A DNA stretch of 58,606 nucleotides from a virus (IMGVR_UViG_3300031992_000010); one strand, 5' to 3'. Counted from the first letter of the stretch, positions 1,115-54,834 are shown. Notes: generated from the sequence alone by a model not told the origin. Numbers and translations are program-made.

Positions 1115-1480
1115 ATGAAAAGTTTAGTTGAAAAAATAATGGAAGGACAGAATCCTAATTTTGAAAAGGTGAATGATGTATATGTATCAATAGATGACTC
1201 ACCATCGGCATCGAAGGAATACAATAAAAATAAGGAGATGGTTGATGGAATGGTTGATATATATACCCGTTATTTGGGTGAGTGGAAAGTTCCGGTTCGT
1301 ATAACGGTTTCCGGTGTCGGGATTGCATCCATGGAACATGATAGCCGTAAAAATGGATTCAAAAAATTTAAAATGGACTTTTATGAATCCCCCGAATTTA
1401 AGGAACTTGAAAAGTTTGTAAAAACATTCGGTTATAAAGTTATTCCGGGAGTTACATGGGGTATAAATGTATCGAAATAA
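1115..1480 (+). CDS. hypothetical protein with CTS-like leader (MKSLVEKIME-G)
   Basis: 121-aa ORF directly after the previous gene and followed by a terminator hairpin. Confidence 0.75.
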   Translation: MKSLVEKIMEGQNPNFEKVNDVYVSIDDSPSASKEYNKNKEMVDGMVDIYTRYLGEWKVPVRITVSGVGIASMEHDSRKNGFKKFKMDFYESPEFKELEKFVKTFGYKVIPGVTWGINVSK

Positions 1481-1501
1481 TCATTTTAATATAACCAAAA
1501 T

Positions 1502-1536
1502 AAAAGGTTTCCAATTAAATTTGGAAACCTTTTTTT
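1502..1536. terminator. bidirectional intrinsic terminator with TTAAAT loop
   Basis: AAAAGGTTTCCAA-TTAAAT-TTGGAAACCTTTT, between convergent genes. Confidence 0.85.
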
Positions 1537-1543
1537 ATATATT
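1515..1543 (+). promoter_or_regulatory. TTAAAT-N17-TATATT promoter-like site overlapping the terminator
   Basis: Exact match to both hexamers with a 17-nt spacer. Confidence 0.6.
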
Positions 1544-1561
1544 AATATATAACCTTTAAAA

Positions 1562-1771
1562 TTATGACAAAATTTCAATGGTACCTTTCGGGGTATTTTC
1601 CCCTATTTCAATTTTTTTGCCGTTGGATTCGAGTATAAATATGACCTCGTTGAAATCCACCCGGTAGTCAACAATGACACCAACAACATCCATAGGGAAT
1701 AAACAGGAACATTTATAATGGACCTTTTTACCCTTCAAATATTCACCAAATATTTCCTTAAACGTTTTCAT
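1562..1771 (-). CDS. small hypothetical protein
   Basis: 69-aa ORF coupled to the upstream gene; starts MKTFKEIFGE. Confidence 0.6.
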   Translation of the reverse strand: MKTFKEIFGEYLKGKKVHYKCSCLFPMDVVGVIVDYRVDFNEVIFILESNGKKIEIGENTPKGTIEILS

Positions 1772-1965
1772 TAATCCCCTTCGTAGAGGTCTATTTTGGT
1801 TTGTAATTCAAATATGTGACGTTTAATGGCCGCAATATTCCGGTCGATATATTTACACGCAAATACACCCACATCCGAACATTGTTTTACCTTTTCCAAA
1901 GCATCCACCTCATTTTGATATAATTTTATATCATTTTGGATCTTATCAATATCAATTTGAGTCAT
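1771..1965 (-). CDS. small coiled-coil hypothetical protein
   Basis: 64-aa ORF whose stop overlaps the next start. Confidence 0.65.
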   Translation of the reverse strand: MTQIDIDKIQNDIKLYQNEVDALEKVKQCSDVGVFACKYIDRNIAAIKRHIFELQTKIDLYEGD

Positions 1966-1983
1966 AATAATATAATTTTTTTT

Positions 1984-2892
1984 TTATACCCAATACATTG
2001 TTTCATATAACTTGGAAGCCCAATTATGTAAGGCGGTATATATGAAATTTTTATGACTATATGCCGTGCCATTAATAATATATTGATATGCCTGTTTTAA
2101 TTGGAGTAGGATTGACCGCAAGGCCGTATCATCGGCGTTAACACAGGTACAATCGCAGTAATCCAAATTATTCAGATCAAGACGTGATTTTAATGGCAAT
2201 CCGGCATTAAGTATACCATCAATGTATCTTATAATTAATTCACAAAATTCAACCTTTGAGGTCCAAAAATCGATATTACTAAACACCTCCATCATTTTCC
2301 CATAAATGGCGTCCCGGTAAAGTGATATAGGGTCACAATTTTGGGTTCCAAGTGTGGCCAAACCAATCTTAATCGATGTTTGATTACATTTACAGGCCGA
2401 TTTGACATCCGTAGGACGTGGAATGGAGGCAAAATGTGTTAGGGCCATAATGGTGGCGTCCTCCATATTATTTGCATAATATTTTAACATCGTATCCGTT
2501 TCATAATCGTATCCGGATGAATCCGTTTCGTTATCATATACATCCTCCGTAAGTTTAATGAGTGACTCGGCCAACCACGTACGGAATCGTTTAAGGTTAT
2601 CCAATGGGATTTCACCTACGTTATCATTTATGATTTGACATACATTTATTTGGTTATTTATACGCTCGGTGGCCATAATATCCACAAACGAGGAATATTC
2701 CTCCGTATCGAGATACCCAACACCGGTTGGTATTTCATTTAACCTGGATGCCTCCACATATAGGTCGGGGTCCATATCATCGAAGGCAACCGCCCATTTG
2801 CAGTTTACCCACCAGCAGTATTTCCCTTTGTATTTATCATTAAAAACATTATCGTCCGGTTTTATAACGTCCTTGAATTTTATTATATTCAT
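1984..2892 (-). CDS. hypothetical protein
   Basis: Long ORF in a minus-strand operon. Start moved to MNIIKF at 2892 to remove the overlap. Confidence 0.75.
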   Translation of the reverse strand: MNIIKFKDVIKPDDNVFNDKYKGKYCWWVNCKWAVAFDDMDPDLYVEASRLNEIPTGVGYLDTEEYSSFVDIMATERINNQINVCQIINDNVGEIPLDNLKRFRTWLAESLIKLTEDVYDNETDSSGYDYETDTMLKYYANNMEDATIMALTHFASIPRPTDVKSACKCNQTSIKIGLATLGTQNCDPISLYRDAIYGKMMEVFSNIDFWTSKVEFCELIIRYIDGILNAGLPLKSRLDLNNLDYCDCTCVNADDTALRSILLQLKQAYQYIINGTAYSHKNFIYTALHNWASKLYETMYWV

Positions 2893-2905
2893 AATCCTAT
2901 ATTTT

Positions 2906-4150
2906 TTATATATAACTATCATATGTACCACCTTTTTGTGTAATGACATATGTATTGTTATCCTGTTTTTTATTTTGATATTCCTTATATGTACGTTTTC
3001 CTACGGTTTCAGCACTTAAATTACGCAAATCCCTTACATTCGATGCATATTTATATTCAACAAATACCCGATGATTTGATTTATTATAAAGATCAAATAT
3101 TTGTTGTATAATTTTTTCGGTAACCGAATTGCTATCACCAATAACCGAACCACTTCCAATTTTATCAGGATATGATGCGATGTTTGGTTTTGTAAGGTTT
3201 CCCAATAGCAAACATGCATCGGTATCCCCTGGAAAGTTTCCGGAGTGGAATAAAACCAATCCAAAAAGTCCTCCCGCGAGTGTAAATTGCCCGGCCCTAT
3301 TATTCAGGTCACAAACACAAGGTTTTTCCGGTTGGGAACTTTTTGTTCTTTTAATAAGTGTTAACGGACGTTTGCCGGATGGTCTAAATTGAATTTTATA
3401 TTTACCTGTTGGTATGGCGGTTTGTCCGTGAACCTTATAACTTTTAAGTTTAAATCCTGTTCCTTGAACAAATTTATTTGAAAGTGTTTTGCCATCCCAA
3501 ATAAACCCCCTATCAAGGTCCTCACACGTATAACATAATGTTTTTCCATCCAACATCAATCTTCCCAATGTATAATCCTTACCAAGAACGATACGTTCCA
3601 CCACAAGATTGACCCCATTTGAGACATCCACATTTAATGATGAATAATCCTCCATAATATTTGAAATGTCACCAACGGATATAGGGGTGGGTGTAGGTTC
3701 GGGCTGGGGCGGCATCTCCGGCATCATAGGGATTGCATCACCATAATCAACGGGGGCCAGTTCCGCGGGCTGTTCATCCGGAATAGGTAACGCCCCACCG
3801 GTTACCATGGAGGCCAATGCGGTTGCCTTATCGGTTGCCGCACCGGTAACCTTGTCAATCACTTTTTGTGTTATTTCGGCAACCTTTTGTGATATCCAAT
3901 CCTCGATCATTTTTTCCACACCGGCGATAAAATCCTGCACTGCCTGAATAACCTTCATAATGCGTGAGATTAGTTTATTGATTTTATTCATTATATTGGT
4001 TAACACGGCACCTACGGCGGTGAGTGCCTTTTCCTTCAGGTCCTTTATTTTGGCATCAAGATATGCAATGGTATTGAGGAAAGCGCCAACCTTCGCATCA
4101 TACCACGCCTTCAATTCATTATATTTATCATATGCCTCAATAATGGTCAT
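2906..4150 (-). CDS. DUF5675-like domain fused to an N-terminal coiled coil and Pro-rich linker
   Basis: C-terminal half has ER..LGKDYTLGRL, CYTCEDLDR, TAIPTGKY and LFHSGNFPGDTDACLLLG, which I recognise as DUF5675-type motifs. Confidence 0.6.
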   Translation of the reverse strand: MTIIEAYDKYNELKAWYDAKVGAFLNTIAYLDAKIKDLKEKALTAVGAVLTNIMNKINKLISRIMKVIQAVQDFIAGVEKMIEDWISQKVAEITQKVIDKVTGAATDKATALASMVTGGALPIPDEQPAELAPVDYGDAIPMMPEMPPQPEPTPTPISVGDISNIMEDYSSLNVDVSNGVNLVVERIVLGKDYTLGRLMLDGKTLCYTCEDLDRGFIWDGKTLSNKFVQGTGFKLKSYKVHGQTAIPTGKYKIQFRPSGKRPLTLIKRTKSSQPEKPCVCDLNNRAGQFTLAGGLFGLVLFHSGNFPGDTDACLLLGNLTKPNIASYPDKIGSGSVIGDSNSVTEKIIQQIFDLYNKSNHRVFVEYKYASNVRDLRNLSAETVGKRTYKEYQNKKQDNNTYVITQKGGTYDSYI

Positions 4151-4156
4151 TATCTA

Positions 4157-4393
4157 TTAGGAAAATTTAATACCGTTTTGTGTTAGTATTTCCGATGAAA
4201 TAATATTTTTTGAGAATAAACAAATACGTTTGCCATCCTTATAAACTGCATAATTGTTTTTTGGTGTAAGTTTTACCTCTATTGAATTTGGATCATCAAC
4301 ACCATAAACCTTCAACATGGCGGCAAATTGCCTGTATTGGCGTTCATCGTTGGAAATATTATTTTCCATTAGTGTATTAAATAGGTTTTTCAT
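4157..4393 (-). CDS. hypothetical protein with CTS-like leader (MKNLFNTLME-N)
   Basis: 78-aa ORF overlapping the ndk stop by 4 nt. Confidence 0.7.
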   Translation of the reverse strand: MKNLFNTLMENNISNDERQYRQFAAMLKVYGVDDPNSIEVKLTPKNNYAVYKDGKRICLFSKNIISSEILTQNGIKFS

Positions 4394-4791
4394 TTTAAAT
4401 AAATATTTTTTTCTATTATTTTTCTATTTTTTGAATCACTTGAATGCATAACATTCCTCATATCATCCTTACCATATTTTTCCCTGATTTTATCCTTGAA
4501 TGCACCCACATCAATTCCGTGGACGTTTATGCATTCAAAACCGGTTGAAGGACCTGATGTCATATAATCACAAAGATCCTTGTAGAAGTCCTCATCCTTG
4601 TGTGGAAAATAGAACTTTTCCGCCTCCTCCATATTAAGTGTTTTTGTGTTCCATTTAACCGGCATAAGACCTACGGACCGCATTTCATTCAATAATATAG
4701 GTGTAAGTTGAAGGAAACCGGGTTTGATCATTATAAACTCGGTCGATTGTTTTTTGATTCCTTCCAATATGAGGTTATGTAAATGTTTCAT
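4390..4791 (-). CDS. ndk: nucleoside diphosphate kinase
   Basis: FIMIKP, EAEKFY..HK...FYKDL.DYMTSGP, IREKYG and RNVMHSSDS (catalytic His) match NDK motifs. Confidence 0.9.
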   Translation of the reverse strand: MKHLHNLILEGIKKQSTEFIMIKPGFLQLTPILLNEMRSVGLMPVKWNTKTLNMEEAEKFYFPHKDEDFYKDLCDYMTSGPSTGFECINVHGIDVGAFKDKIREKYGKDDMRNVMHSSDSKNRKIIEKNIYLK

Positions 4792-4797
4792 TATGGA

Positions 4798-6921
4798 TTA
4801 ATTTTTTTGCATATATACACCTTTACATCCACGTCTTGCCTCAAATTGTGGCAGGTTGGTAAATAAATTATTATCCAATTCCGGGTAATTAATTTGAACA
4901 CCTTGCGGTATTTCAAACTTATCGTTATTATATTTATCCGAATCATCCGGGAATGTTTGTCCGAATACCTTTGAATTCAGGTCGTTAAACGAAATGAATA
5001 AATATCCCCCATCAACCTCCGTGTAATTGAATAATGGTGTATAAATATAATTAAGATTTAATAACCGGTTTTGTAATATTAACGTAGGAGCCTCCTCAAG
5101 CCCAAGTTGACGTTTGATTATATCGACCATGGAGGTTTCCGCCGATGGAATCCATAACGGTGAATATCCAATAAAATCAAAATATGAATTGTCGCCATTT
5201 TTAACATATTCATAATTCATAATTAATGGTGTAATATTGGTACCTGCCGCATATTTAACAACCGCAATTTTATCACCACCTACAAGGTAATCATATAACA
5301 TTGGTGTGCCGCCCCTACGAATGGAATCAATCCTCGTCCAATTTCCGGTTGTAATTGAAATACCTTGGTTCTCGCCATCCACGAGGAATTTAATATTTAT
5401 ATCCTCATCGTGACGGATTGTTGAACGTATATATGAAAGTATTTCCTGATATGTATTGGTATTTGCATCGTATACATTTAATCCGGCCACCGACATAACA
5501 CCTGTTCTGTCGATATCCATAACCTGTTTATTGAGTTCCGGATTCACCACCGTCAGCGCCTGTGTTTCAAGTTCAATGGTACGGGCGTCCATAACGATGT
5601 CATCAAAGTCATTATATTTCAACCACGACTTTGTCCCGGCAACGTTTTCAAATTCAACGGTATTATTATCATCCACATTTATGAGGTTGTTAACCTTTTC
5701 CGATGGATTGGCGATACCCATATCGCGGCCATTTACAAACCAATGGGTTACGCCTCCGACAACGCGGGTATATGGAACGTTTGCCCTATAGTTTGCAAAC
5801 ATGGCAAGGTGGTTTTTCATGGCCTGACTAAATTCGGTTTGGTTTACCACCATCGTCTCCATTAATGTTTGTGAATCCGCTATGGATGAAAGTAATGCAC
5901 AATAACGGTCGGCCTCCTCGCCATTTAAACCGTTGATTTTTAATACATTAACATCCGTCGTTTGAGGCGTGCATACAAATTTGGTATTTATTCTTAATCC
6001 GTATGAGGTGCCTTGATTATAAATCAATTCATCCGCAACGACCTTGATGACCTCATTTGTTAAGGTTCCATCCGTTGGTGTACCGGTAAAGTAAATACCC
6101 ATAGGGATATCCTTATATAAAATATCGGAATTTGAATCATACACGTCAAAAAATACAATAACGGTATTTATCCTAAATTCCTTTTGAACATCCCCCGAGT
6201 CATCAACGGATTGTGTTATAACACCATCGGCCATTGATGTCAATTCATATGGAATAATTGCCGCCGTTTGGACATCCTCCATATAGTAACCCTTTGTGTT
6301 GGTGTCATTAAAATCAATATATGACATACCGGTGTCCTCGTTGACAATTTTACCATTAAGGTCCGCGTTGGCGGTAGGATAGTTGGTACTATCAAAACCG
6401 CTGATATAATTATCCACACTACCGACAAATTCGGCATTGACCGATTGATTTTCCGGATATGTGGTGTGGTATCTCATTGCCTTGACATTATTATCCACAT
6501 AACACCATAACTCATTATATCCAACGCCATCGATTTCCTCAAAAGGCGTCAGGTTGATATTGCCTATATAATGAAGTTCATTTATAAATGTAAAATTATC
6601 CTTCGATCCGATTGTTATAAATCCATATTTGTATAATGTTTTCCACAACAATTCGTTGGCAAGTTTTCCGGCGGTTAGTATGGATGAATCCTGTTTACGG
6701 AATACCGAGCAGGCATTCTCATAATAATTTTGGAATATTTCACCCACCATTTGAGGGGTTTTTCCCTCATAGTTTAGATTCATCATTGCATACCGGTTAG
6801 GAATAACACGATATTGATTCTCCTGAACATATGATTTGGTAAGGTTCTCCGCATACTCGGAAAACATAAAAAATGTCCCGTTTCCTGTCAAACTTCGAAG
6901 TAGGTTACATTTTGCGGTCAT
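4798..6921 (-). CDS. large hypothetical protein, probably virion structural
   Basis: About 707 aa, N/T/D-rich, divergent from the tail-fibre block. Start moved to MTAKCN at 6921. Confidence 0.6.
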   Translation of the reverse strand: MTAKCNLLRSLTGNGTFFMFSEYAENLTKSYVQENQYRVIPNRYAMMNLNYEGKTPQMVGEIFQNYYENACSVFRKQDSSILTAGKLANELLWKTLYKYGFITIGSKDNFTFINELHYIGNINLTPFEEIDGVGYNELWCYVDNNVKAMRYHTTYPENQSVNAEFVGSVDNYISGFDSTNYPTANADLNGKIVNEDTGMSYIDFNDTNTKGYYMEDVQTAAIIPYELTSMADGVITQSVDDSGDVQKEFRINTVIVFFDVYDSNSDILYKDIPMGIYFTGTPTDGTLTNEVIKVVADELIYNQGTSYGLRINTKFVCTPQTTDVNVLKINGLNGEEADRYCALLSSIADSQTLMETMVVNQTEFSQAMKNHLAMFANYRANVPYTRVVGGVTHWFVNGRDMGIANPSEKVNNLINVDDNNTVEFENVAGTKSWLKYNDFDDIVMDARTIELETQALTVVNPELNKQVMDIDRTGVMSVAGLNVYDANTNTYQEILSYIRSTIRHDEDINIKFLVDGENQGISITTGNWTRIDSIRRGGTPMLYDYLVGGDKIAVVKYAAGTNITPLIMNYEYVKNGDNSYFDFIGYSPLWIPSAETSMVDIIKRQLGLEEAPTLILQNRLLNLNYIYTPLFNYTEVDGGYLFISFNDLNSKVFGQTFPDDSDKYNNDKFEIPQGVQINYPELDNNLFTNLPQFEARRGCKGVYMQKN

Positions 6922-7040
6922 ATAATTTTTTAATATTTTTATATATAATAATTTTGATACAAAATATATTAAAGATTGGCCGTTTGAAATGCTTATTTTT
7001 TTCACCGCCAAGCATTATTATTTATTAAAAAACTAACAAA

Positions 7041-10000
7041 ATGGCAGAAACCAAATACGAAATCGGATTGTTGAATTATACCTGTGATACATACGAATCC
7101 GCCATTGAATTTCTTGATAATTTTGGAAAACATAAACCCGGGCAGCCAATATGTGTTTTATATGGTGAGGAGGGCAATTTGAAGGCGTTGTTCGCCGTCG
7201 GTACGGAGGCCGGTGATGGTTACGATATAGTTGGAAGTGTAAATACAAACGATATTGCCAGGTACGTAAAATGGTTTACGTTGGATGAGAATGGAAACCC
7301 CGTTCCGGATCAAAACCAATTACGATTAATCCATAATCTTCCCGACGATTTTGATTTGGATGAGTTATCAAACGGAAGTAATTTATTATTTATTCCGGTT
7401 AATGATGAAATTGGATATATATACCATAATGGAATATTATACGCCTCGCCATATATTGAGGATAAGATTACCAAAGGTGAATTAACCGTTGGTGAAACCA
7501 CATATGAGGAGGGAACCCCTCTAACCGATATTATTGTGGATATATTAGGAAAAATCGATCCCGATAATATAAAGGTTAAATGGGAAAATATCACCGGAAA
7601 ACCTGAAAAGGTCGAGGATGCATTTAATTGTTCCTCATTCCTAAAAAAGGAAAACAATTTAAGTGAGTTATTAAATAAGCAACTTGCGGCGAGAAACCTT
7701 TTGATTTGGGATGGTATGGTAAATAATACCATATTAAAAATCGAAAACGGTGAAATTAAGTGGGGTAATGTAACAATCGGCTGGTATCACGGGGATGATC
7801 CTATTCCCGGAACGGAGGTAAGATTTGTTAAAATGTCGAAGGCCGAATATGAGGCATTGACTTCGCCAAGTATATACAAACTATATTTTGTTGATGCCGG
7901 AGGCGGAACATTCGAATTATTTTTAGGTCCATATCCTATAAAACCAACATCATATAATATATATAAAAACCCAAATCCACCATCGGATTTACAGGAACAA
8001 TATATGCTTTTGGATAGTGGCGGCAACATCTGCGGGTCAACCATAGACATACCAAAGGATAAATTCGTCACCCACGCCGAATTAAAAACGGTTACCGAAC
8101 CTGATGTACCATATGAAGGGGCAAAGGTTGGGGATGAATATATAGATTTGGAGGTAATGTATTGTGAGGATCATATTTATATCCCACTTGGTGACCTTGA
8201 TGTTCCCCAAAGTGACTGGGGTGAAAATGACCCAACCTCACCCACACATATATTAAACCGTACCCATTGGACGGATGAACCGGTTGAGGAGGAGGTTATC
8301 GTTGCCGAATATACCGGTGGTAGTGATGTAAATATTCCATTAAATGAACCATTGGTTGCCGGGAAGACATATACGGTTGTTTCATCGGGTTATCCTGATG
8401 AACAATACAATTATACGATGGAAATACCGGTATTATATTATGAGAGTGGTGATTATTTCGAAATCCCTTTGCGTTATGGTAATTTTCAATCCATCGAAGG
8501 TATTGATGTAATTAGATTGAATGGTCCTACGGAGGAGAATGCCAATATTGTGATCAAATATACAAAAACAACACAGGAAATCCATTCATTATCACAGGAA
8601 TATATACAAAATCCTTTGGTTGATTGGGGTCAAAGCGATCCAACCGGTGCCGGTTATGTTAAAAATAGAACCCATTACGATGATGGAGGATATGATGATG
8701 TTATAGGTAAAACCTTAACATTTAATAATAGTGGTAATATTGGTGGTGCATATTTTTTCGATCCTTTATTTGAACCAAAGGAGGGTGAAATATATTACTT
8801 CAAGATAGGTAATTATTTGCAAAAATTAAATCCTATGGCATGGTATGAAAACAACGGACTCAAATACCTAAGTTGTAGCGGTGGAAATTATTGGGGAGGA
8901 GGAACATATTTCTTTTTTCCGGATGGAAATACCGACCCAAATTCGGGGGCTAAACGTGCGGTTGTTTCTCCGGGTGGAAACCCTAATTTTTTGAAAGGTC
9001 AAACATTTAATTTGCTTCGTAAAAAGGCTGACGCCACAAAGCCTCTTGATAAGAAATATATTCCGGCGGGTGCTTCCGATTGGAATCAAAATGACCCCAC
9101 AAGACAAGGTTATGTGGAAAATCGTACCCATTATGAGAAAATAACGGATGAGGAATATGCCGTATTTGAAGGGACATTTACAGTTGATGGGAGTTCGTGG
9201 ACGATTCCGGAGGAACATATAACGGATTATAAACTTTGGGAAACCGGTAATGTCGGTTATAATTTATTTGTATTGGAAATTGATGGAATTAGATATGGGC
9301 GTGCATCAACATATATTAGTAACACCGTTGCCTATGGTGGTGGAAATGCATTATATGATCCTACCGAAAATTATGGTGATGTGAGTTTTGGATCATTTAG
9401 TTTCGGTACGAATGGTAGTGGTTTTAATGCATACTTTTATTTTTATGCATCCGGTACAAATATAAATCCGGCAACACAGGAACCTATATTTGATCCAAAT
9501 GAAACACACTCATATAAATTTTACGGTATAAAAACGGTAAAAAATATAAAGGAGATTGAAGGTAAATATCTACCTGCCGGATCAACGTATGTTGAGCACG
9601 TTTATGATGGTGATTTTAGAGCGGAATCCGGGGATTATAATAAATATATATACTTTAATTTGGATAAGGAATACGGATTAAAGGATGCCATATTTACGGT
9701 CAATTTTCTCGGTACCGAATATAAATTAAAGTTTACAAATATATATACATATACCGGGGATTATCACGAAAATATGGAAGATTGGTATGGATCCACCCAA
9801 TATATATATTTTGATCCGAATAATAGTAATTCATATTTTTACATATATTATACGAGTGCATTTTCGACCGGGGATGGATACAATGCGTATTTATATATAT
9901 CAAAAAATAGAAACACCACATATTCAGGTCACGCAACTGTTGATGTGGAATATGTTAAGGTGCTGAATGGAAAATACCTTCCACAGGATATGTTATCCAA

Positions 10001-32572: not shown

Positions 32573-32824
32573 TTATTTACGTATGCGCATATATGTGGTA
32601 TATTCATCCGCCATATATGTTTCACCAACCTTCAATTTTTTAATTTCCGAAATGGGATCACCATCCCAGTCCATATCGGGATCGAAAAAGTCGGTTATGT
32701 CATCATCACTAAAGAATGACAACATATTGGTTTCAACATTAATCATTAAAAATTTTGAATCCTTATCCAGTTCCTGACCCAATTCCCAATTTGCTGAATT
32801 GATGCCTTCAAAAATATGTCTCAT
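32573..32824 (-). CDS. hypothetical protein with CTS-like leader (MRHIFE-G)
   Basis: 83-aa ORF in the operon. Confidence 0.7.
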   Translation of the reverse strand: MRHIFEGINSANWELGQELDKDSKFLMINVETNMLSFFSDDDITDFFDPDMDWDGDPISEIKKLKVGETYMADEYTTYMRIRK

Positions 32825-32833
32825 ATTAATATA

Positions 32834-33163
32834 TTATTTTTCACCAAATGATTTATTCAACACACCGATCAATTTACCCCAATCACCTTTATCGGCGGCA
32901 TCCTTATTGTCATTTAGAATACCATCGATGGTTTCCTTCATTTGTTTTTCATCCAAATCATCACCGAATACCTCCTTGAATTTATTTTCGGCATAATCAC
33001 GGAATGATTTTTCGTCCTTAATTGATTCCTCCGCCTTATTTGCCTCCTTTTCGGCGTCCTCGGCCTTATCCTCAACCTTATCAATTTTCTTTTCAAGTTC
33101 CTTTATTTTGGCATCATCCGATTCCAAAAGGGATTTTTTTAAACTTTCAACCAAATTCATCAT
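32834..33163 (-). CDS. charged helical protein with CTS-like leader (MMNLVESLKKSLLE-S), possible core/scaffold protein
   Basis: K/E/D-rich coiled coil. Confidence 0.6.
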   Translation of the reverse strand: MMNLVESLKKSLLESDDAKIKELEKKIDKVEDKAEDAEKEANKAEESIKDEKSFRDYAENKFKEVFGDDLDEKQMKETIDGILNDNKDAADKGDWGKLIGVLNKSFGEK

Positions 33164-36106: not shown

Positions 36107-36135
36107 TTAAATTTGTCCAAAAATCTTTATATATT
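36107..36135 (+). promoter_or_regulatory. TTAAAT-N17-TATATT promoter-like site for nrdD
   Basis: Exact hexamers and spacer. Confidence 0.75.
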
Positions 36136-38361: not shown

Positions 38362-38396
38362 AAAGGTTTGGGAATTAAATTTCCCGAACCTTTTTT
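38362..38396 (+). terminator. intrinsic terminator with TTAAAT loop
   Basis: AAAGGTTTGGGAA-TTAAAT-TTCCCGAACCTTT followed by a T run. Confidence 0.85.
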
Positions 38397-38403
38397 GTAT
38401 ATT
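38375..38403 (+). promoter_or_regulatory. TTAAAT-N17-TATATT promoter-like site overlapping the terminator
   Basis: Exact hexamers and spacer. Confidence 0.7.
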
Positions 38404-39479: not shown

Positions 39480-39878
39480 TTATTTTTTTGTCAAATCACT
39501 TATTTTTGCGGTTTTAAAAAATTTCACCGGAACTATTTTTTCCAATTCATTGAAAGTTGTTGCACAATATAATTTTAATCCATCATTATCAACCATTTTA
39601 CCCGTGGATGAATGGCCACCTGCAAAATTAAAGGTATTATCATCATCACCCCCATTAAGGGCCACCGTGGTGATGGTCACAATACCATTTGTGATTTTTA
39701 TATTTTTAATGTTTAAAATCATAATTGCATTTACATCGGTTTCAGGTGCCTTATTGAAGGAGGAATCCGCATAAGCCCAATAATATACGATATCCCCAAC
39801 CCCGAGATCCTCCCATTTAGGGGTTTGTCGTATCCCTGTTTTCCTTCCACCTATTAAATATTCATATATATGTTCCAT
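39480..39878 (-). CDS. hypothetical protein, paralogue of 38429-38782
   Basis: Start moved to MEHIYEYLIGG at 39878. Confidence 0.75.
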   Translation of the reverse strand: MEHIYEYLIGGRKTGIRQTPKWEDLGVGDIVYYWAYADSSFNKAPETDVNAIMILNIKNIKITNGIVTITTVALNGGDDDNTFNFAGGHSSTGKMVDNDGLKLYCATTFNELEKIVPVKFFKTAKISDLTKK

Positions 39879-40734: not shown

Positions 40735-40853
40735 ATATACACAATTTTTTATAAAAATAACATAAACCCACATAAAATATAAGTGGACCTGAAAAATATT
40801 TATTTTATTAAAAATTTCATTGGTAGTTTTATTATTAGAAAAATAAGGGAAAT

Positions 40854-41680
40854 ATGAATTATCCGCAATCATTACAATCAATAAGGACAGGCAGATCCAG
40901 TTTGGAAAAATGGCTTCAAAAAAACTATCCGGAATTTAAGTTATTTTTGGATGAAAAATATCCGGGCACCTCATATCAATGTGGGTTATATATGTTTTAT
41001 AACGGAATTGATTCCATACCATTATGTGATTGTGGAAAACCTGTTAAATTTTACGGGAACCAATATGGTTTTGCCCGTTGGTGTAGCCCCACCTGTGCCC
41101 AAACAAGTAATGAAATATTAAATAAGCACAAATCCACCTGTTTGGAACGATATGGTGTTGAATATTCATTACAAAATGATAAAATAAGAATGAAGGCAAT
41201 CCAAACAAAGGAGGAAAAATATGGTGATCGAAATTATAATAATAAACAAAAATATAAATCCACCTGTTTGGAACGATATGGTGTGGATAATCCACAAAAA
41301 TCCCAAATTATAAGGAAAAAGGTGGAAAATACCTGTTTGGAACGATATGGCGAGACCTCATTTTTGAAGACACAAACGGTAAAAAAAATAAATGATGAAA
41401 AATTTATTTTAAATAACCCATATTTTATCTCAAAGGTTGGTGATGTATATAAATTCAAATGTTCAAATCCAAACTGCAATAAATGTTCCGAAAAGGAATA
41501 TGAAACAAATTATGATCTTCATTATCAACGAATAAATGTATATAACATCGAGCCGTGCCCAAAATGTATAGGCATTGGTGAGTCGGTCCAAATAAAACGG
41601 AGGAACAAATAATGTTGGAGACCGGTTATCTAAAAATATATGATACCGGACAAAGCAAATGGGTATTTAAAAACCATTAA
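40854..41680 (+). pseudogene. Hef-like endonuclease copy 2, internally deleted
   Basis: The N-terminal zinc and YGV repeats are intact (ORF ends at 41612). The family C-terminus (TEEQIMLETGYLKIYDTGQSKW) lies in another frame at 41582-41680. Nuclease and GNAT-like domains are absent. Confidence 0.8.
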
Positions 41681-47124: not shown

Positions 47125-48966
47125 ATGGCTGAACAAACTGATGGAGTAAGTGGAAAATACGTACAACCCGAAGGCTATATGGAGGTTCGTACCCAACAAC
47201 CGGGTACATCCTTAAATGAGGCCGCCGTGGATCCAATGAATATCCCGGGGTTTAGAAAAACCACAAACTTCCACCCAAATTATGCCGGTAGTGAACCAAA
47301 GAAAAAGAAGAAACGTCTAATCAACCAATTTTTCTCCGACCTATCACGTTGGGGTATGAATTATGAGGAGGACGTAATCAAAAATATGCAGGCCATACCT
47401 GCGGATAAAAACCTTATACCTAAACAAAACCAATTATTGATGCAGGATTTGTTTGCAAACAATAATTGGAAGGTAAAAACCAATAGGGATAGAAGTTTTT
47501 ATGAAAAGGATTTCGCCTCGAAACGTGAGGTTCTCCGTAACCTTGCATTGCAGCCGGAATTGGAGGATATTTTGGATACACTTGCAAACGAGGCCGTTGT
47601 TTATGACTCCAATTATACATATTTTATCGAGCCATATATCGATGAAAATGAAACGAAGGAATTGGATAAAAAGGCCAACGAGGAACTCCGCAAAAATATG
47701 TCCGACTGGTTTGCCAAATTATATAAAATGTTGGAGTGGAAAACGAAGGCTTGGGATGATTTCAAACGATTTGCCGTGGAGGGTGAACTTGCGTGGGAAA
47801 TTGTTTATGACAATGTGACAAATCCAACTAAAATTATTGGCCTCGTTCCACTTGATACCGCCACGCTGACGCGTACATTTAAGAATGGCAAGTGGTATTA
47901 TATTCAATTCAAGGGTGTTATGGGTAAGGAACGCGAATTATTGGATTCCCGTGTGGTGTTTATCCAATATCAGGAAACCAATTGTATTTCACGTATGTCA
48001 TACCTGGAACGATTGGTTCGCCCATTTAATATTTATCGTATTATTGAGCAGGCCCAAATTATTTGGACCGTATCCAACGCACAAAGCAAAATGATGTTTA
48101 CCATTCCTACAAATGGTATGTCACAGGCGGAGAGTGCCATGACTGTTGCCTCCATGATGAATAGATATCGCGAGGTAATCAAATTCAAACAGGAATCCGG
48201 TGAGTTGGAAATTAACGGTCAATCAAATATTCCGGGAAATAAGGAATATTGGGTTGCATCAAATGAGGCCGGTGAACCTCAAATTGAAACCATAGCGGGT
48301 GAAGGACCTGAATTGAATGATAATGACCAATTGAAATACTTTTATAACCGTCTTATAAAGGCCTCAAAAATTCCGCTTGATCGTTTTGACGCGGAATCAG
48401 GTACAACATGGTTTGGCACCGATGGTTCGAGTGTGGCACGTGCCGAGATTTCATTCTCCCGTTTTGTGGATAGGATGCGTAATACATTCGTTCAGGCCAT
48501 ATTGAAGCCACTTCAAATCCAAATGATGCTATTGCAGCCGGAATTGAAGGAATATCTTGATATTGTAAATTCAATCTCAATCCACTTTAATTCATACAAT
48601 CCTTTTGAGGAAATGCTTGAAATGGAGATGACCCAAAAACGTGTGGAATTTATCCAAACAATGAAGGAATCGTTGGTGGATATGGATGCGGAAGGAAATG
48701 ATGTCAAATTCTTCTCAAGTGAGTTTTTGGTTAAGAAATATTTACATTACTCGGATGCCGACATTGCCCTTAATAAACGAATGAAGCAGAAGGAGGATGT
48801 GGAAATGGGTCTTGCCGGTGGTGAGAACGCCGACGAACAACTTGAATCCACGGACGAACAACTTGCAAATCTTCTTGAACAGGTTGAAAAACGTAAATCC
48901 GAACTAAAGGAGGAGATAAAGAAAAGAAAAAAGAAAACCAAACCTAAAAAGGACGAGGAGGAATAA
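47125..48966 (+). CDS. gp20: portal protein (T4 gp20-like)
   Basis: LALQPELEDILD..ANEAV, F..EGELAWE, SYLERL.RPFN..RIIE and LIKASKIPLDRF. Confidence 0.9.
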   Translation: MAEQTDGVSGKYVQPEGYMEVRTQQPGTSLNEAAVDPMNIPGFRKTTNFHPNYAGSEPKKKKKRLINQFFSDLSRWGMNYEEDVIKNMQAIPADKNLIPKQNQLLMQDLFANNNWKVKTNRDRSFYEKDFASKREVLRNLALQPELEDILDTLANEAVVYDSNYTYFIEPYIDENETKELDKKANEELRKNMSDWFAKLYKMLEWKTKAWDDFKRFAVEGELAWEIVYDNVTNPTKIIGLVPLDTATLTRTFKNGKWYYIQFKGVMGKERELLDSRVVFIQYQETNCISRMSYLERLVRPFNIYRIIEQAQIIWTVSNAQSKMMFTIPTNGMSQAESAMTVASMMNRYREVIKFKQESGELEINGQSNIPGNKEYWVASNEAGEPQIETIAGEGPELNDNDQLKYFYNRLIKASKIPLDRFDAESGTTWFGTDGSSVARAEISFSRFVDRMRNTFVQAILKPLQIQMMLLQPELKEYLDIVNSISIHFNSYNPFEEMLEMEMTQKRVEFIQTMKESLVDMDAEGNDVKFFSSEFLVKKYLHYSDADIALNKRMKQKEDVEMGLAGGENADEQLESTDEQLANLLEQVEKRKSELKEEIKKRKKKTKPKKDEEE

Positions 48967-49013: not shown

Positions 49014-49035
49014 AATTATTGAAATAATATTGGAA

Positions 49036-50709
49036 ATGGACATAACATATTTATTGCAACAACCAAGGACAAGATGTAAGGAGGTTCATATAAGCAAATG
49101 GTTCCCACAGGATTACAACGAAATACTTAAACAACCCGGTACAAAATTTACGGAGAAATTATACCAATATATGTATAATAATCCGGAACATATATGTCCT
49201 GTATGTGGTAAACAAACCCCATTTCAAAATTTTATTTCCGGTTATTCCAAATATTGTAGTGTTAAATGTAGTGCCAACGATGAGGAATGTACAAAATTAA
49301 AAAAGGAAACCATATTGGAAAAATATGGTGTTGACAATATATCCAAATTGGAATCCATCAAACAGGTAAAAAAGGATATAATGAATGAACGGTATGGCGG
49401 CTTTTACAATAACAGGGATAAGGCAAGGAAAACAATGTTGGAAAAATATGGTGTTGACAATATATCCAAATTGGAATCCATCAAACAGGTAAAAAAGGAT
49501 ATAATGAATGAACGGTATGGCGGCTTTTATAACAATAGGGATAAGGCAACGAAAACAATGCTGGAAAAATATGGTATAAAAAGCACGTTGGCCTTGCCGG
49601 AGGTTAGACAAAAGGCATTGGAAACCAAAAGAAAACGGTTTCTTGACATAAATGATGATATAATTGATTATGATGGTGATTTGTGGATAATGAAATGTCC
49701 ACACCCGGAATGTCAAAAATGTAAGGAAAAAACATTTAAAACACCACAAGGTATATATCACGATAGAAAACGTGACGGGTATGAATTATGTACAAATATA
49801 TTACCAATACAGGATATCCGGGTATCAAATACATCGATCGAAATTTTTGTTAAACAAATTTTGGATGAATATGGTATTAAATATGAGGAAAATGTAAGAA
49901 ATATAATTCCACCAAAGGAGTTGGATATTTATATTCCCGATATGCATATTGCGTTTGAATGTAACGGGTGTTATTGGCATAGTGATTTTAGGGATCACCG
50001 GCCAAAACGTCATTATGAAAAATATAAATTATGCCGGGATAAAGGGATTCAATTAATTACAATTTGGGAGGATTGGACCTATAATAAATCGGATATTTTA
50101 AAATCCATTATAAAAACAAAATTGGGTTTAATTGAAAATAAAATTTACGCAAGGAAATGTGAATTGGTGGATATATCAAACCAAAAAACATTGGTAAATA
50201 ATTTCCTTGATGTAAACCATATACAAGGCCATACCGTTTTTGAAAAATGTATTGGTGCCTATTATTGTGGTGAGTTGGCCGCCGTGATGACCTTTGGACA
50301 TAAACGGGGATGTCGTGGGGGTGCCGGTAAGGTATCAAATGAATGGGAATTAAGTAGGTTTTGTACAAAAATGGATGTGATTATTCCCGGCATTGCAAGC
50401 AGGTTATTGAAAAAATTCGAATATGAATTTAAACCGGAAATAATATATTCATTTTCATCCAACGATATTAGTTCCGGTAATTTATATAAAATACTTGGAT
50501 TTGAGGAGGAACAAACAACGATTCCATATTGGTACATTGAACCCAAAACATTAAAACGTTACCATAGAACGGCATTTACAAAAAGGGAGATGATACGGAA
50601 ACAAATGGCATCCGACTCGGATAATTTTACGGAATCCGAAATAATGAAAAAATATCATTTTTATAAGATTTATGATTCCGGAATGACCAGGTGGGAAAAA
50701 CATCCTTGA
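49036..50709 (+). mobile_element. free-standing Hef-like homing endonuclease gene, copy 3
   Basis: Same architecture as copy 1 (KELDIYIP..AFECNGCYWH and YKIYDSG.TRW); downstream of the portal. Confidence 0.7.
49317..49563 (+). repeat. 123-nt near-perfect tandem duplication (41 aa)
   Basis: EKYGVDNISKLESIKQVKKDIMNERYGGFYNNRDKA occurs twice, starting at 49318 and 49441. Confidence 0.95.
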
Positions 50710-50851: not shown

Positions 50852-50913
50852 TTAAATTTTTTCCGGATTCTTTATATATTAATATGTAAGTTAAATTTAA
50901 AGGATATAGGAGG
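50852..50913 (+). promoter_or_regulatory. 62-nt promoter plus leader cassette
   Basis: 61 of 62 nt identical to 21441-21502. Confidence 0.85.
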
Positions 50914-51303: not shown

Positions 51304-52293
51304 TTAACCCCATAATGTGTGGTATATGTTAAAGACACCTTTTTCCTTATTACGGACTTCGAAAGGCCCATAAAATTTATTGTCATAATCCGAATAATAA
51401 TACAATTCCTTTGGTACCTCATCGGTAAATCCAATCATCGGGACAAGGTTCCCGTCATTCAGTTCCTTCTTTGTATAAATATATCCGGAATTTGCCTTTA
51501 CCGATGGCATATCACCACTACGGGTGGCAAACCCAAATAGTGCATCGCGGATGGTATCACCTTTCAATTCCGTCCCTTCCGGTCCAAAATTGTATTTATC
51601 GTATATTTCATTCAGTTCCTTTTCATTGGTGACATTGAACTCATTTAGGTCAATCCATTTAACCTGCCAATGGGTTGTGTGATAATTGCCGAGAATTAAA
51701 TAACGATGCATCAGGATTTCCTCTATCCAGGCATTTGTTTGTTGTAATCTATTGTTATGCTCGGTTTGGGCCTTCCAAAATTTCTCCCTCATTGCCGTTA
51801 TCCTACCATCAAGGTTAACAGGCAGTTTTTTCCCACCATTTAACTTCATAAGGGTGTCGTACAATTTGGTAAGTAACTTGTTTTTGGCGTCATCATCCGT
51901 TTTGATTCGCCATATATTTGTGGTGATGGCATCCACGGCGGCCGTTATCCAAAATAAGGTCTCACCCGGTGCCACTTCGGCAAAGCCGCGTTTTTTTACA
52001 AATTTTACCCCATCATCGATGATGAATTTTGCGAGTTTCCATATATTGGAAGTTGTCGCATCCTTACGTACCTCCGAGTAAAGTTTATTATATTGGCTCA
52101 ATACCTTCGGATCGTTATTGTCCAGCCACCCCCGGAGATTATTTTCGGCCTCATCGTCAATACCCCCATATAGGTCGTATTGTTTTGAAATTTGCAACAA
52201 TTTTTGTACCCCCTGTTTATCAACCGGAAGATTTTCCATTTCCCGGTCAAAATCAAAGAAACTTGCCTCGACTATATTTATTAGATGTTTCAT
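51304..52293 (-). CDS. hypothetical protein with CTS-like leader (MKHLINIVE-A)
   Basis: 329-aa ORF at the end of the minus-strand cluster. Confidence 0.75.
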   Translation of the reverse strand: MKHLINIVEASFFDFDREMENLPVDKQGVQKLLQISKQYDLYGGIDDEAENNLRGWLDNNDPKVLSQYNKLYSEVRKDATTSNIWKLAKFIIDDGVKFVKKRGFAEVAPGETLFWITAAVDAITTNIWRIKTDDDAKNKLLTKLYDTLMKLNGGKKLPVNLDGRITAMREKFWKAQTEHNNRLQQTNAWIEEILMHRYLILGNYHTTHWQVKWIDLNEFNVTNEKELNEIYDKYNFGPEGTELKGDTIRDALFGFATRSGDMPSVKANSGYIYTKKELNDGNLVPMIGFTDEVPKELYYYSDYDNKFYGPFEVRNKEKGVFNIYHTLWG

Positions 52294-52402: not shown

Positions 52403-52684
52403 TTATTTTAATCTTTTGACTTGTTCCTCAACCCATTCGTTTGGATACTGTTTTATGTCCTCAATATCAAAATACATTAATTCACCCAAATATGAAAAAT
52501 CTTTGGGAAGAGATTTGGATTTATTATCATAATCCATATATTTTTTACGTTTCCAAACTTGGACCATATATTGATTTCCGTGTTTAACCTCAACGAATTT
52601 ATACATACCATCGGACAAGCCCTTTATTACAACTTTACCATTATGTGGTTTTGATTCTAACATAATTTCATTCAAATGTCTCAT
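52403..52684 (-). CDS. hypothetical protein with CTS-like leader (MRHLNEIMLE-S)
   Basis: 93-aa ORF in the cluster. Confidence 0.75.
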   Translation of the reverse strand: MRHLNEIMLESKPHNGKVVIKGLSDGMYKFVEVKHGNQYMVQVWKRKKYMDYDNKSKSLPKDFSYLGELMYFDIEDIKQYPNEWVEEQVKRLK

Positions 52685-52686
52685 AT

Positions 52687-53109
52687 TTATATGTTTTTAT
52701 TTCTTATCATTAATCTTACGGTACAAACACCATACCGGGGTGCACTAAAATGCATCAAATATTGTTTACCGGTTTTTGGGTCATAATGTCCACACGCGGT
52801 GGATGGAGTCCACTTTGCGATTGCATTCAAATTTTTCCTTATACCGGGATGACCGGCATACATTGTACCAAATATAGGTTCATACAAACTATCCAGGGTG
52901 CACCATACCCGGTCAAACATATCGACCACCCAAGGTTTTTTCTCTATGTTCACCCTAAACTCATAGTAACCAAGAGGGTAGTCCTTGTCGTCCTTCTTGG
53001 AATATGAGAAATATTTCTCCACCTGCGAAATAAGTACCTCCCAACTTTTGGTAATTGTATCCGTGTCCGTGAGTTTAGGTGCCGATATGGATTCGTATAA
53101 ATGCCTCAT
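52687..53109 (-). CDS. hypothetical protein with CTS-like leader (MRHLYE-S)
   Basis: 140-aa ORF in the cluster. Confidence 0.75.
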   Translation of the reverse strand: MRHLYESISAPKLTDTDTITKSWEVLISQVEKYFSYSKKDDKDYPLGYYEFRVNIEKKPWVVDMFDRVWCTLDSLYEPIFGTMYAGHPGIRKNLNAIAKWTPSTACGHYDPKTGKQYLMHFSAPRYGVCTVRLMIRNKNI

Positions 53110-53172
53110 ATTTATGTGTTTTTTCGATTACATTTTCCTTATTTTCAATATTATGAATAATTATATTTTTAA

Positions 53173-53568
53173 TTACACACCAAAACCATTTTCCCAATCA
53201 TTCATAACAATATCCACCCATTTTTCTAAATCCTTGGTAATTTTAGCCGGGTAACTATATGCATCTATAAAACCTCCTGAAAAATTCCGGAACGTTTTAA
53301 TGTCATTTATATAATTAGATTGGGCTTTAATAATATCATTATTTAAATTATACTCTATCAAAATATCCACATCATATTCTTGCATCATCTCAATGGTACA
53401 ATAGAATATATTGTTTTTTATTTTAATATCTTTTATATTGTCGCATTCAAATAAATTTTTCAAAATTTGTTCTATATCATCTATAGGAAAATTTGATTTC
53501 GCTTCATTTATCAATCCTATTTCCCCATCAATTAATTCAAATAATATATTTTCACTTAAATGTTTCAT
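53173..53568 (-). CDS. AT-rich hypothetical protein with CTS-like leader (MKHLSENILFE)
   Basis: 131-aa ORF, visibly more AT-rich than its neighbours. Confidence 0.7.
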   Translation of the reverse strand: MKHLSENILFELIDGEIGLINEAKSNFPIDDIEQILKNLFECDNIKDIKIKNNIFYCTIEMMQEYDVDILIEYNLNNDIIKAQSNYINDIKTFRNFSGGFIDAYSYPAKITKDLEKWVDIVMNDWENGFGV

Positions 53569-53578
53569 ATCATTTTGC

Positions 53579-54076
53579 TTATTTTCCTAAATAACCTTGT
53601 GATTTCCAACCTGTTATTATTTGTTTTAATGTGGCCGTTGCGTAATGTCGGCGATAAAATGATAGACGTTTGCCATATTGATCGTATAGTCTATCCAATT
53701 CGGATTTTTTAATGGTTGCCGAATATACAAATAATTCATATTTTGGGGGCTCCCCTATGGAACCGGCATATGAGTATTTGAGTGATACCTTACCCAAATC
53801 CTTCCATTTTTGCTTACCTATAATTTTCTCAATATCCTTAATCGATCTCCATTCCTGACCATCATTAAAGCGTATACCTCCATTGGCACACATATAACCC
53901 TTATCGTCCTCGGGGGACCAAATAAGACATGCCCTGTTTCTTCCGGTGGTAAGGTCAAGGTTACTATCGATATAATCATTTGTTTCCAATGCAATTACCT
54001 TTACCTCATCATTATTGACCATTGGCCGGGTTAGGCCTCCAAGTGCCTCCATTATTTTATTTTTGAGTGTTTCCAT
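53579..54076 (-). CDS. hypothetical protein with CTS-like leader (METLKNKIME-A)
   Basis: 165-aa ORF downstream of a minus-strand promoter. Confidence 0.75.
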   Translation of the reverse strand: METLKNKIMEALGGLTRPMVNNDEVKVIALETNDYIDSNLDLTTGRNRACLIWSPEDDKGYMCANGGIRFNDGQEWRSIKDIEKIIGKQKWKDLGKVSLKYSYAGSIGEPPKYELFVYSATIKKSELDRLYDQYGKRLSFYRRHYATATLKQIITGWKSQGYLGK

Positions 54077-54122
54077 ATTTTATATTTCCTTTTTTTATAA
54101 ATGGATTATCCCAGTTGATTGT

Positions 54123-54151
54123 AATATATAGGGAAATACCAAAAAATTTAA
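54123..54151 (-). promoter_or_regulatory. TTAAAT-N17-TATATT promoter-like site on the minus strand
   Basis: The plus strand reads AATATA-N17-ATTTAA. Confidence 0.7.
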
Positions 54152-54159
54152 GGTAATAA

Positions 54160-54834
54160 TTATAAATTTTTCACATCCGTATCGCAAACAAATGATTTTG
54201 CCTGAATATTGGCCTTCATAGCGTAATATTTTGTGATTTTTCCCGGATTTCCGGTACATTTAAAGGTACCATCTATTTTGGCACATCCAATCAGGCCGTC
54301 AATGCCTTCAATGCCACAATCGCAAACATTATATACGCCGCCCAATTCATCGGTGCCGCAAATTGTTTTTGGTCCCTCCTTCAATGATGTCAATCTTGGA
54401 TTATGATGTGCTATGAATTGTACACAACATTTTGGTGCTCCGGTTAAGGCCGTCAAATTATTATTTGAACAATTATACACATCCACAACAAGCGGTCCGC
54501 CACGTAATGTTCTTAATGCCGGATTATTTGCACAATTAAATGCATTGCATTCCTCCGGACAGCCACGTAATACCTTCAAGTCATTATTACTTATATCAAA
54601 ATTACCTGCTATATATTTGAATTGGATAAATGATGGGAATGACGATAATCCCTTTCCGGATAAATCCACATCACCATCAACGTTGATTGTCATATCGCCA
54701 TTAATGCGGTAGTTTTTTAATCCCATTTTCTTACACCAACCAACAATTTTTAGATATGTATCATTACCCTCTATATTAAGTGGTGTATTACCAATATGTT
54801 TTTGTTCGGTTATAAAATTATAAAGATGTTCCAT
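54160..54834 (-). CDS. LRR-like repeat protein with CTS-like leader (MEHLYNFITE-Q)
   Basis: About 22-aa repeats: F.C.NN.L..L.G.P. Confidence 0.65.
   Translation of the reverse strand: MEHLYNFITEQKHIGNTPLNIEGNDTYLKIVGWCKKMGLKNYRINGDMTINVDGDVDLSGKGLSSFPSFIQFKYIAGNFDISNNDLKVLRGCPEECNAFNCANNPALRTLRGGPLVVDVYNCSNNNLTALTGAPKCCVQFIAHHNPRLTSLKEGPKTICGTDELGGVYNVCDCGIEGIDGLIGCAKIDGTFKCTGNPGKITKYYAMKANIQAKSFVCDTDVKNL

Follow-up and report, generated by a model that had tools for sequence, protein, structure and literature searches.

A leader peptide shared by unrelated proteins of an uncultivated T4-like phage matches the capsid targeting sequence of T4

A short N-terminal leader is shared by at least 13 otherwise unrelated proteins encoded in IMGVR_UViG_3300031992_000010, a stretch of viral DNA of 58,606 nucleotides (58.6 kb; hereafter the window) that forms part of a 210,090-bp metagenomic contig from an uncultivated T4-like phage. 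The tagged proteins are mostly lineage-specific orphans of 70–330 aa, together with a nucleoside diphosphate kinase (NDK) and a sigma-70-family sigma factor, and their leader is the same motif as the capsid targeting sequence (CTS) of the T4 internal proteins IPII and IPIII. It is probably this phage lineage's version of the T4 CTS, by which proteins would dock in the assembling head, be cleaved after Glu by a gp21-type protease, and remain as cargo to be injected; most likely, the known T4 CTS/gp21 mechanism is seen here greatly expanded and with unusual cargo.

A leader common to unrelated proteins

All 12 N-termini quoted in a first-pass annotation of the window were confirmed, with starts at 1115 on the plus strand and, on the minus strand, at 4393, 4791 (NDK), 32824, 33163, 34596 (sigma factor), 52293, 52684, 53109, 53568, 54076 and 54834. 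Beyond these there are a 69-aa open reading frame (ORF) starting at 1771 (-), a leader-only mini-ORF of 15 aa and one borderline case starting at 39471 (-); the total is 13 ORFs and one mini-ORF carrying the leader, or 13–14 tagged genes in 58.6 kb (Table 1). The consensus, M-[KRE]-[HTSNQ]-L-x-[NE]-x-I-x-E, has G, S or A as the next residue and is mostly 10 aa long: nine leaders have exactly this length, and the rest have 6 (MRHIFE/G and MRHLYE/S, a slash here and below marking an end, or possible end, of a leader), 9, 11 or 14 aa. Column by column, the nine 10-aa leaders have M; K, R or E; H, T, S, N or Q; Leu at position 4 in 8/9; any residue; N, E or Q; any residue; Ile at position 8 in 6/9; any residue; and Glu at position 10 in 9/9. 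P3 is I, L, M or F and P1 is Glu in every leader of the window, which bears out the earlier description of an [ILM]-x-E end followed mostly by G, S or A, with Phe as a further residue at P3. As had also been observed, PolB, NrdD, the large terminase (TerL), the tail sheath and the fibre proteins lack the leader, and the same holds for the portal. The tagged proteins are otherwise unrelated, as claimed, in that the 13 core proteins trimmed of their leaders have no significant pairwise similarity (blastp, all E > 0.05). Most of them also belong to no Pfam or PHROG family, in which they resemble the internal proteins of T-even phages (PMC12373910).

Two relatives extend the comparison, namely a 112-kb IMG/VR contig (G1; parent contig 221 kb), reached by means of a degenerate DNA pattern for the leader, and a complete genome of 239.8 kb (G4, also G004), reached via the capsid protein of G1. 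Their portals are 59–62 % identical to that of the window (62 % for G004), and many of their genes are syntenic with it. Where orthologues of the small tagged proteins were compared, their leaders differ in sequence and keep the same pattern: the 78-aa protein begins MKHLIDIINE/S in G1 and MKHLAQIINE/G in G4, the 109-aa protein begins MKDITVFLNE/Q in G1, and the 69-aa protein behaves likewise. Pfam searches with 103 tagged proteins from the window, G1 and G4 gave DUF285 four times, Sigma70_r2 three times, NDK twice and a weak RNA_ligase match once, all others being orphans, a majority that is as expected for fast-evolving accessory cargo.

Many residues of the leader (K, N, I, L, E and H) have AT-rich codons, the window has a GC content of 37 %, and the regions upstream of its gene starts contain A-rich tracts without Shine-Dalgarno sites. 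The motif might thus be a by-product of codon composition and translation-start selection in a host that does not use Shine-Dalgarno sites, or else the mark of paralogues with a common N-terminal helix, which would suit the many tagged genes of G4 that stand in tandem arrays resembling paralogue families. This explanation is very improbable, and the artefact is largely refuted by the controls. Non-genic ATGs of the same DNA almost never match: a loose pattern recovered 12 gene starts vs 0 of approximately 2,500 other ATGs in the six frames of the window, and a second pattern, defined post hoc, recovered 12 of the 86 gene-start ATGs vs 2 of 1,484 others (Fisher p = 3e-14). As an independent check, a position-specific scoring matrix (PSSM) trained only on nine window leaders was applied to the relatives found later, where it scored 11 gene starts vs 1 site elsewhere in G1 and 11 vs 2 in G4; in Tenacibaculum phage PTm1, an AT-rich control with a Bacteroidota host, it scored 2 and 2. 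Enrichment in the window is position-specific (8.2-fold for His3 and 3.1-fold for Leu4, as well as for Glu/Asn6, Ile8, Glu10 and Gly11), being specific to positions 3, 4, 8 and 10, and Leu4, Glu6, Ile8 and Glu10 are position-specific in the window, G1 and G4 alike, whereas PTm1 shows only a generic Lys bias at positions 2–5. The motif is therefore enriched at gene starts beyond what random AT-rich N-termini provide, the comparison by which the first-pass annotation had proposed to judge it. Synonymous codons vary as well (TTA, TTG, CTA, CTC and CTT for Leu4; AAA, AGA and AGG for Lys or Arg at position 2), and selection has therefore acted on the peptide and not on the DNA. As for paralogy, NDK, the sigma factor and the orphans are unrelated.

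Correspondence with the T4 capsid targeting sequence

T4 IPII and IPIII begin MKTYQEFIAE/A, a point made in the earlier annotation and borne out by the T4 record, and IPI begins MKTFKEF; the first six residues of the window's 69-aa ORF are identical to those of IPI. When the window-trained PSSM was run over the 3,979 ATG-started 11-mers of both T4 strands, IPIII and IPII ranked first and second with scores of 19.9 vs 14.5 for the next, the uncharacterised gp61.1, and the proposed identity of the leader with the CTS of IPII and IPIII thereby holds. T4 gp61.1 (AF158101 18966–19130), a hypothetical protein of 54 aa, begins MKTFKEFIKE/D and may be an unrecognised CTS-bearing protein.

The P3 and P1 residues of the window leaders match the [L/I]-x-E rule of gp21. 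Other T4 head proteins also have short starts that end in [L/I]-x-E, including gp24 (MAKINELLRE/S), gp22 (MLKEQLIAE/A), gp67 (MEGLIE/A), gp68 (MLLIPE/T) and gp21 itself (..LLIE/T). With propeptides of 6–10 aa on these proteins, both the 10-aa and the 6-aa forms found in the window therefore have T4 counterparts. In T4, the first 10 residues of IPIII are enough for packaging; within the CTS, targeting depends on residues 4 and 7 and processing on residues 8 and 10, and Asp at position 10 allows targeting and blocks processing (PMC9026906). The CTS of the internal proteins is removed by the prohead protease gp21 (Mullaney & Black 1996; PMC9026906, PMC3012670, PMC12373910). At least 10 internal proteins of T-even phages have been recognised by this leader (PMC12373910, PMC9026906), among which Ip1-3 are injected inhibitors of GmrSD restriction enzymes (PMC12373910, PMC3012670).

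NDK, the sigma factor and the leader as a separable module

The two enzymatic or regulatory proteins that had been placed among the tagged set are both confirmed there. NDK matches PF00334 (E = 1.4e-16; 61 bits vs a cut-off of 27) over residues 19–132; its domain thus begins at residue 19, and the leader lies outside it. Among its diverged relatives, surveyed as the small representatives of 50 %-identity clusters related to the window NDK, at least 20 of approximately 55 begin MKxLxxYIxE/[SA] with a linker of 3–20 aa before the first NDK strand, and others begin directly at the core. The sigma factor matches phrog_351 (E = 2e-18); Sigma70_r2 is below threshold in the window protein and is called in orthologues. 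For its AlphaFold2 (AF2) model (mean predicted local distance difference test score, pLDDT, 75.5), the top 50 fold matches are all primary or group-2 sigma factors, with 270–400 aligned columns and probability 1.00, and residues 1–19 of the model have pLDDT < 50 and are unpacked, the leader being outside the folded core. The leader is therefore a separable module attached to unrelated folds, and the modular tag of the first-pass annotation stands. A second, smaller sigma-like gene (305 aa, PF04542; L001:3851–4768, plus strand) lies approximately 5 kb upstream of the window; it is leaderless, beginning MESTDKNIIQ..., and is possibly a late sigma factor. No homologue of the tagged sigma factor or of the tagged NDK was found in PAU, PTm1 or T4.

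Nearly all orthologues of the sigma factor (35–80 % identity) keep the leader, and an alignment of 32 sequences has only 19 invariant columns, M1 and E10 among them, a degree of conservation that points to purifying selection on the leader. An invariant Glu fits a cleavage site as well as a targeting signal, and enzymes and a sigma factor would be unusual head cargo; the leader might accordingly be a removable pro-sequence only, with the prohead protease or another Glu-specific protease timing activation or inactivation and with no delivery in the virion. The pro-sigma-E and pro-sigma-K factors of Bacillus are precedents for such control. However, T4 gp21 is not known to be active outside the assembled prohead, so its substrates would have to be there to be cut. 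In addition, position 4, which together with position 7 is required for targeting in T4 (PMC9026906), is the best conserved here (Leu in 8/9). On this evidence, a pro-sequence that serves no delivery is improbable.

Protease, capsid and leaders in relatives

If the leader works as the T4 CTS does, a gp21-type protease is to be sought in the same lineage, and proteases of the S77 family are present in G004, on the parent contig of G1, in phage PAU and in PTm1. The G4 protein, of 492 aa, exceeds the cut-offs of both Peptidase_S77 (31.2 bits, cut-off 27) and Peptidase_S80 (29.5 bits, cut-off 23.4) over residues 26–163. Aligned with T4 gp21, it keeps GELEHP (T4 GELNHP), ISSR (T4 VSSRG) and YDLVG.PG, as well as an N-terminal YIYE/T (T4 LLIE/T) and, at the end of the protease domain, LNE/SQ (T4 ITE/SQ); all five are invariant in 31 homologues, including I6, Y7 and E8 of the clade protease. 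As a profile searched against PDB sequences found T4 gp21 only at E = 0.37, a fold search was needed for the link: the AF2 model, whose quality is modest (pLDDT 57), has PDB 5JBL, which is T4 gp21, as its only match, in all three chains (E = 3e-5 to 1e-4, TM up to 0.65), the next fold match having E = 0.1. More than 2,288 homologues of this protease were found, one of them on the 221-kb parent contig of G1. A predicted complex of the G004 protease domain with the leader-bearing NDK of G004 (score 0.16, mark 0.34) was used neither way. In the capsid protein of the clade, an HE[VI][YF]E/[AG] site near residue 45 is conserved; it would fit the loss of an N-terminal segment of the kind that gp23 undergoes. 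Within the window, a positional protease candidate at 1984–2949 (-) was rejected, having no family and a poor Atlas model.

The cultured phage PAU, whose portal is 38 % identical to that of the window, carries a related leader: 19 of its 297 genes begin MK[TS][LI]xxL[YF]E, the next residue being S, A, G, N or D. Of these 19 genes, 13 lie at 100–121 kb, around the portal gp147 and gp151, which is annotated as a "capsid maturation protease" and matches Peptidase_S77 (E = 3e-11). Among the 13 are gp152, annotated as the scaffold, and gp142 and gp154, both annotated as "internal capsid proteins". The sister leader thus marks components of the prohead core, where the T4 model predicts it.

In the relatives, the leader or a companion motif is found by one pattern in 34 of 176 genes of G1 and 70 of 343 of G4, and the leader alone in 31 and 41. 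The companion, an N-terminal module of the form [SG][LIV]F[DNS]x[DN][LI] (L028–L039 in G004, e.g. G004 985–8175; L016:6548–9075 in G1), stands directly after Met1 (MSIFDKDI...) in approximately 30 genes of G4, with one tandem array of 16, and also follows 6-aa leaders (MKSLVE/SLFDKDL) or 10-aa leaders (MKSLSEFINE/GVFNDNI). It is almost absent from the window, where only the ORF starting at 52293 (-) has ..VE/ASFFDFD. The module may repeat the targeting helix or be a binding motif of its own. Since it could itself bind a partner, whether after the leader or alone in such arrays, and since the tagged genes are so numerous, the shared helix can also be read as a recognition tag for some other machine, such as a modifying enzyme, a chaperone, a system for degradation or export, tail or baseplate loading, or a host target that all these proteins bind. 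However, no partner enzyme regularly accompanies the tagged genes, the only radical-SAM gene near the window being QueE in a 7-deazaguanine cluster; moreover, the motif equals the experimentally defined CTS of T4, and in PAU it marks the scaffold and sits within the head module. A tag for another machine is consequently unlikely, if a little less so than the pro-sequence.

Promoters and the case against capsid targeting

Promoter-like sites of the form TTAAAT-N17-TATATT occur at 23429–23457, 26396–26424, 36107–36135, 38375–38403 and 50852–50880 on the plus strand and at 54151–54123 on the minus strand, 26–47 nt upstream of polB, a WYL_2 gene, nrdD, the genes at 38429 and 50922, and the tagged gene starting at 54076. 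Their spacing is one that we take to be sigma-70-like rather than like that of Bacteroidota sigma-A promoters. The T4-type late promoter TATAAATA, searched for upstream of tagged and structural genes, gave no consistent pattern.

Several observations weigh against capsid targeting. Packaging in the head would need late expression of the tagged island, and the sole strong promoter-like site before that island (54151–54123) is of the same class as the sites in front of polB and nrdD. Neither a prohead protease nor a major capsid gene lies within the 58.6-kb window, and the window genome's own protease is not among the 120 listed homologues of the clade protease; with gp21-family proteases in the relatives, its presence in this genome is therefore deduced from them. 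PTm1 has the same kind of protease-scaffold fusion yet shows no shared leader, so that the tag cannot be predicted from the protease alone. In the relatives, 12–20 % of all genes carry the leader or the companion motif, which is much cargo for one head, and some of these genes, especially those of the MSIFD-only arrays, may use the helix for another purpose. Capsid targeting of the T4 kind is, on the other side of the balance, supported by the agreement of every computational test that was run.

Proposed mechanism and its implications

In the mechanism that we infer, from docking, cleavage, encapsidation and injection to the presence of the protease in this genome, an amphipathic N-terminal peptide of 10 or 6 aa, with a hydrophobic residue at position 4 and an [I/L/M/F]-x-Glu end, would dock its newly synthesised protein on the scaffolding core while the prohead assembles. 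A serine protease of the gp21 family, fused in the relatives to a coiled-coil scaffold-like tail, would then cut after the Glu of the leader, and the freed cargo would remain in the head and enter the host together with the DNA. By analogy with the T4 internal proteins, the orphan cargo would probably consist of anti-defence or host-takeover factors. More tentatively, and with the odds somewhat against it, the clade might package a sigma-70-family sigma factor in the head by means of the leader and inject it with the DNA, so that host core RNA polymerase would be redirected to phage promoters at once; the TTAAAT-N17-TATATT class may represent the promoters of the packaged sigma factor. If true, this would be the first sigma factor delivered by a virion, and sigma factor and NDK as cargo would broaden the known range of what phages deliver at the onset of infection.

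The clade is very large, abundant and uncultivated and consists of T4-like phages of approximately 200–240 kb, with > 2,300 capsid and protease homologues in public metagenomes. Should the T4 mode of action hold for this leader, sequence alone would suffice to list candidate injected proteins, approximately 14 in the window and 30–70 per genome in the relatives, and the proteins injected by thousands of uncultivated jumbo phages of the gut and rumen, NDK and an RNA-ligase-like protein included, would become readable in the same way. Injected proteins are the likeliest place for new anti-defence and host-takeover functions.

Genomic setting and other features

The window encodes a T4-type portal, a large terminase, a tail sheath, a family-B DNA polymerase, SbcD, NrdD, a gp13-family neck protein and long fibre genes. 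With the portal family PF07230, TerL and the gp13 family, its head module is of T4 type; the portal (gp20) family PF07230 is present in the window itself, and the gp23-family capsid PF07068 in the relatives only. No similar GenBank phage was found at the DNA level (blastn of the window, near and distant modes), and a scan of IMG/VR with the window's portal gave no close relative. The records nearest to the portal, at 30–39 % identity, are those of uncultured huge phages, Tenacibaculum phage PTm1, phage PAU and the Prevotella Lak phages, and the hosts named for these phages are all Bacteroidota, that of PAU being actually a Sphingobacterium (PMC3738902).

Among the tagged genes, the mini-ORF sits between two others, 10 nt past the preceding stop codon, and is probably a remnant of cargo loss or exchange. 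An Atlas structure look-up for the function of the 329-aa orphan starting at 52293 (-) gave nothing usable. Two paralogues at 38429–38782 (+) and 39480–39878 (-) (E = 3.5e-9) begin MDGIYEYLIGG and MEHIYEYLIGG; their first six residues resemble the short leader, but the similarity extends into the body of the proteins. Three genes resembling homing endonucleases (phrog_3339, HNH, DUF7487), at 21767–23389 (-), 40854–41612 (+) and 49030–50709 (+), are inserted beside polB, the terminase and the portal, and several more occur in the relatives. For two further ORFs, the gene calls of a near-identical contig give a T4 gp13-family protein of 283 aa (39883–40881, minus strand) and a glucosaminidase of 180 aa (27107–27688, plus strand), and the longest-ORF starts used for both are probably too far upstream. 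To the right of the window, in a region covered by the gene list only, lies the 7-deazaguanine cluster of PTPS, radical-SAM (QueE-like) and GTP cyclohydrolase I genes, with a ParB_N gene.

Table 1. Leader-bearing ORFs of the window, the borderline member and the portal gene
Feature	Coordinates	Strand	Leader (position)	Remarks
121-aa orphan ORF	1115..1480	+	MKSLVEKIME/G (1115–1144)	No Pfam or PHROG match
69-aa ORF	1562..1771	-	MKTFKEIFGE/Y (1742–1771)	Leader-like start kept in G1 and G4 orthologues
78-aa ORF	4157..4393	-	MKNLFNTLME/N (4364–4393)	
NDK, 133 aa	4390..4791	-	MKHLHNLILE/G (4762–4791)	5-aa linker after the leader
83-aa orphan ORF	32573..32824	-	MRHIFE/G (32807–32824)	6-aa leader
109-aa ORF	32834..33163	-	MMNLVE/SLKKSLLE/S (33122–33163)	Two [L]xE sites
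Sigma-70-family sigma factor, 476 aa	33166..34596	-	MKQLTNIISE/G (34567–34596)	
Borderline member, 71 aa	39256..39471	-	MRTLKSSILD/G	Asp replaces Glu at position 10
T4-type portal	47125..48966	+		phrog_213 E = 1e-68; PF07230 Portal_T4
329-aa orphan ORF	51304..52293	-	MKHLINIVE/A (52267–52293)	9-aa leader; no family
Leader-only mini-ORF, 15 aa	52345..52392	-	MKHLNQRINE/SLLRI	Followed by stop codon; MKHLNQRINESLLRI
93-aa orphan ORF	52403..52684	-	MRHLNEIMLE/S (52655–52684)	
140-aa orphan ORF	52687..53109	-	MRHLYE/S (53092–53109)	6-aa leader
131-aa orphan ORF	53173..53568	-	MKHLSE/NILFE/L (53536–53568)	
165-aa ORF	53579..54076	-	METLKNKIME/A (54047–54076)	TTAAAT-N17-TATATT site upstream at 54151–54123
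224-aa orphan ORF	54160..54834	-	MEHLYNFITE/Q (54805–54834)	

Comparison with known systems

The closest known system is the CTS of T4 and the other T-even phages, in which, as in the window, a 10-aa leader stands on otherwise unrelated, mostly small, lineage-specific proteins. The two leaders share the form M-K-[T/H/S]-hydrophobic-x-[E/N]-x-I-x-E, with an [I/L]-x-E end followed mostly by a small residue, and the likeness extends to the T4-type portal of the window and the gp21-family protease of the relatives. Differences lie in number, with three genes in T4 and approximately 10 in total in T-even phages against 13–14 in the 58.6 kb of the window, 34/176 in G1 and 41–70/343 in G4; in cargo, which here includes a sigma factor and NDK and in the relatives DUF285 repeat proteins and an RNA-ligase-like protein, the latter in G4; in the short form of 6 aa, which is common here; and in the protease, which in the relatives is fused to a long coiled-coil tail. 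The T4 system was defined by experiment, whereas that of the window is read from genes. The propeptides of gp24, gp22, gp67, gp68 and gp21 have a short [L/I]-x-E form as well, the 6-aa leaders of the window resembling that of gp67; their carriers in T4 are structural parts of the head, whereas those of the window are accessory proteins and enzymes.

The phiKZ-like giant phages (protease gp175 of phiKZ, gp245 of SPN3US) offer a second parallel, with cleavage after Glu, many processed head-internal ejection proteins, and transcription machinery delivered in the virion as a packaged virion RNA polymerase (PMC9026906, PMC7411985); the clade protease is likewise above the cut-off of Peptidase_S80. 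The phiKZ propeptides, unlike the leader of the window, are long and do not share a 10-aa N-terminal tag, and phiKZ delivers a whole multisubunit RNA polymerase, whereas the cargo proposed here is a sigma factor for the host enzyme.

PAU provides the nearest cultured likeness, its sister leader (MKTLTQLYE/A) being carried by genes clustered around portal, protease and scaffold. Unlike the mostly 10-aa leader of the window, that of PAU has 9 aa and ends in L-[YF]-E, and its tagged genes lie inside the head module, whereas those of the window are scattered in accessory islands. No paper in the literature searched describes the expanded leader set of this clade or its cargo; the principle is already known in T-even phages, and the novelty lies in lineage, scale and cargo. 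Taken together, the comparison shows that the CTS is not peculiar to T-even coliphages and is instead an old feature of T4-type head assembly, shared with Bacteroidota phages such as PAU and greatly expanded in some lineages.

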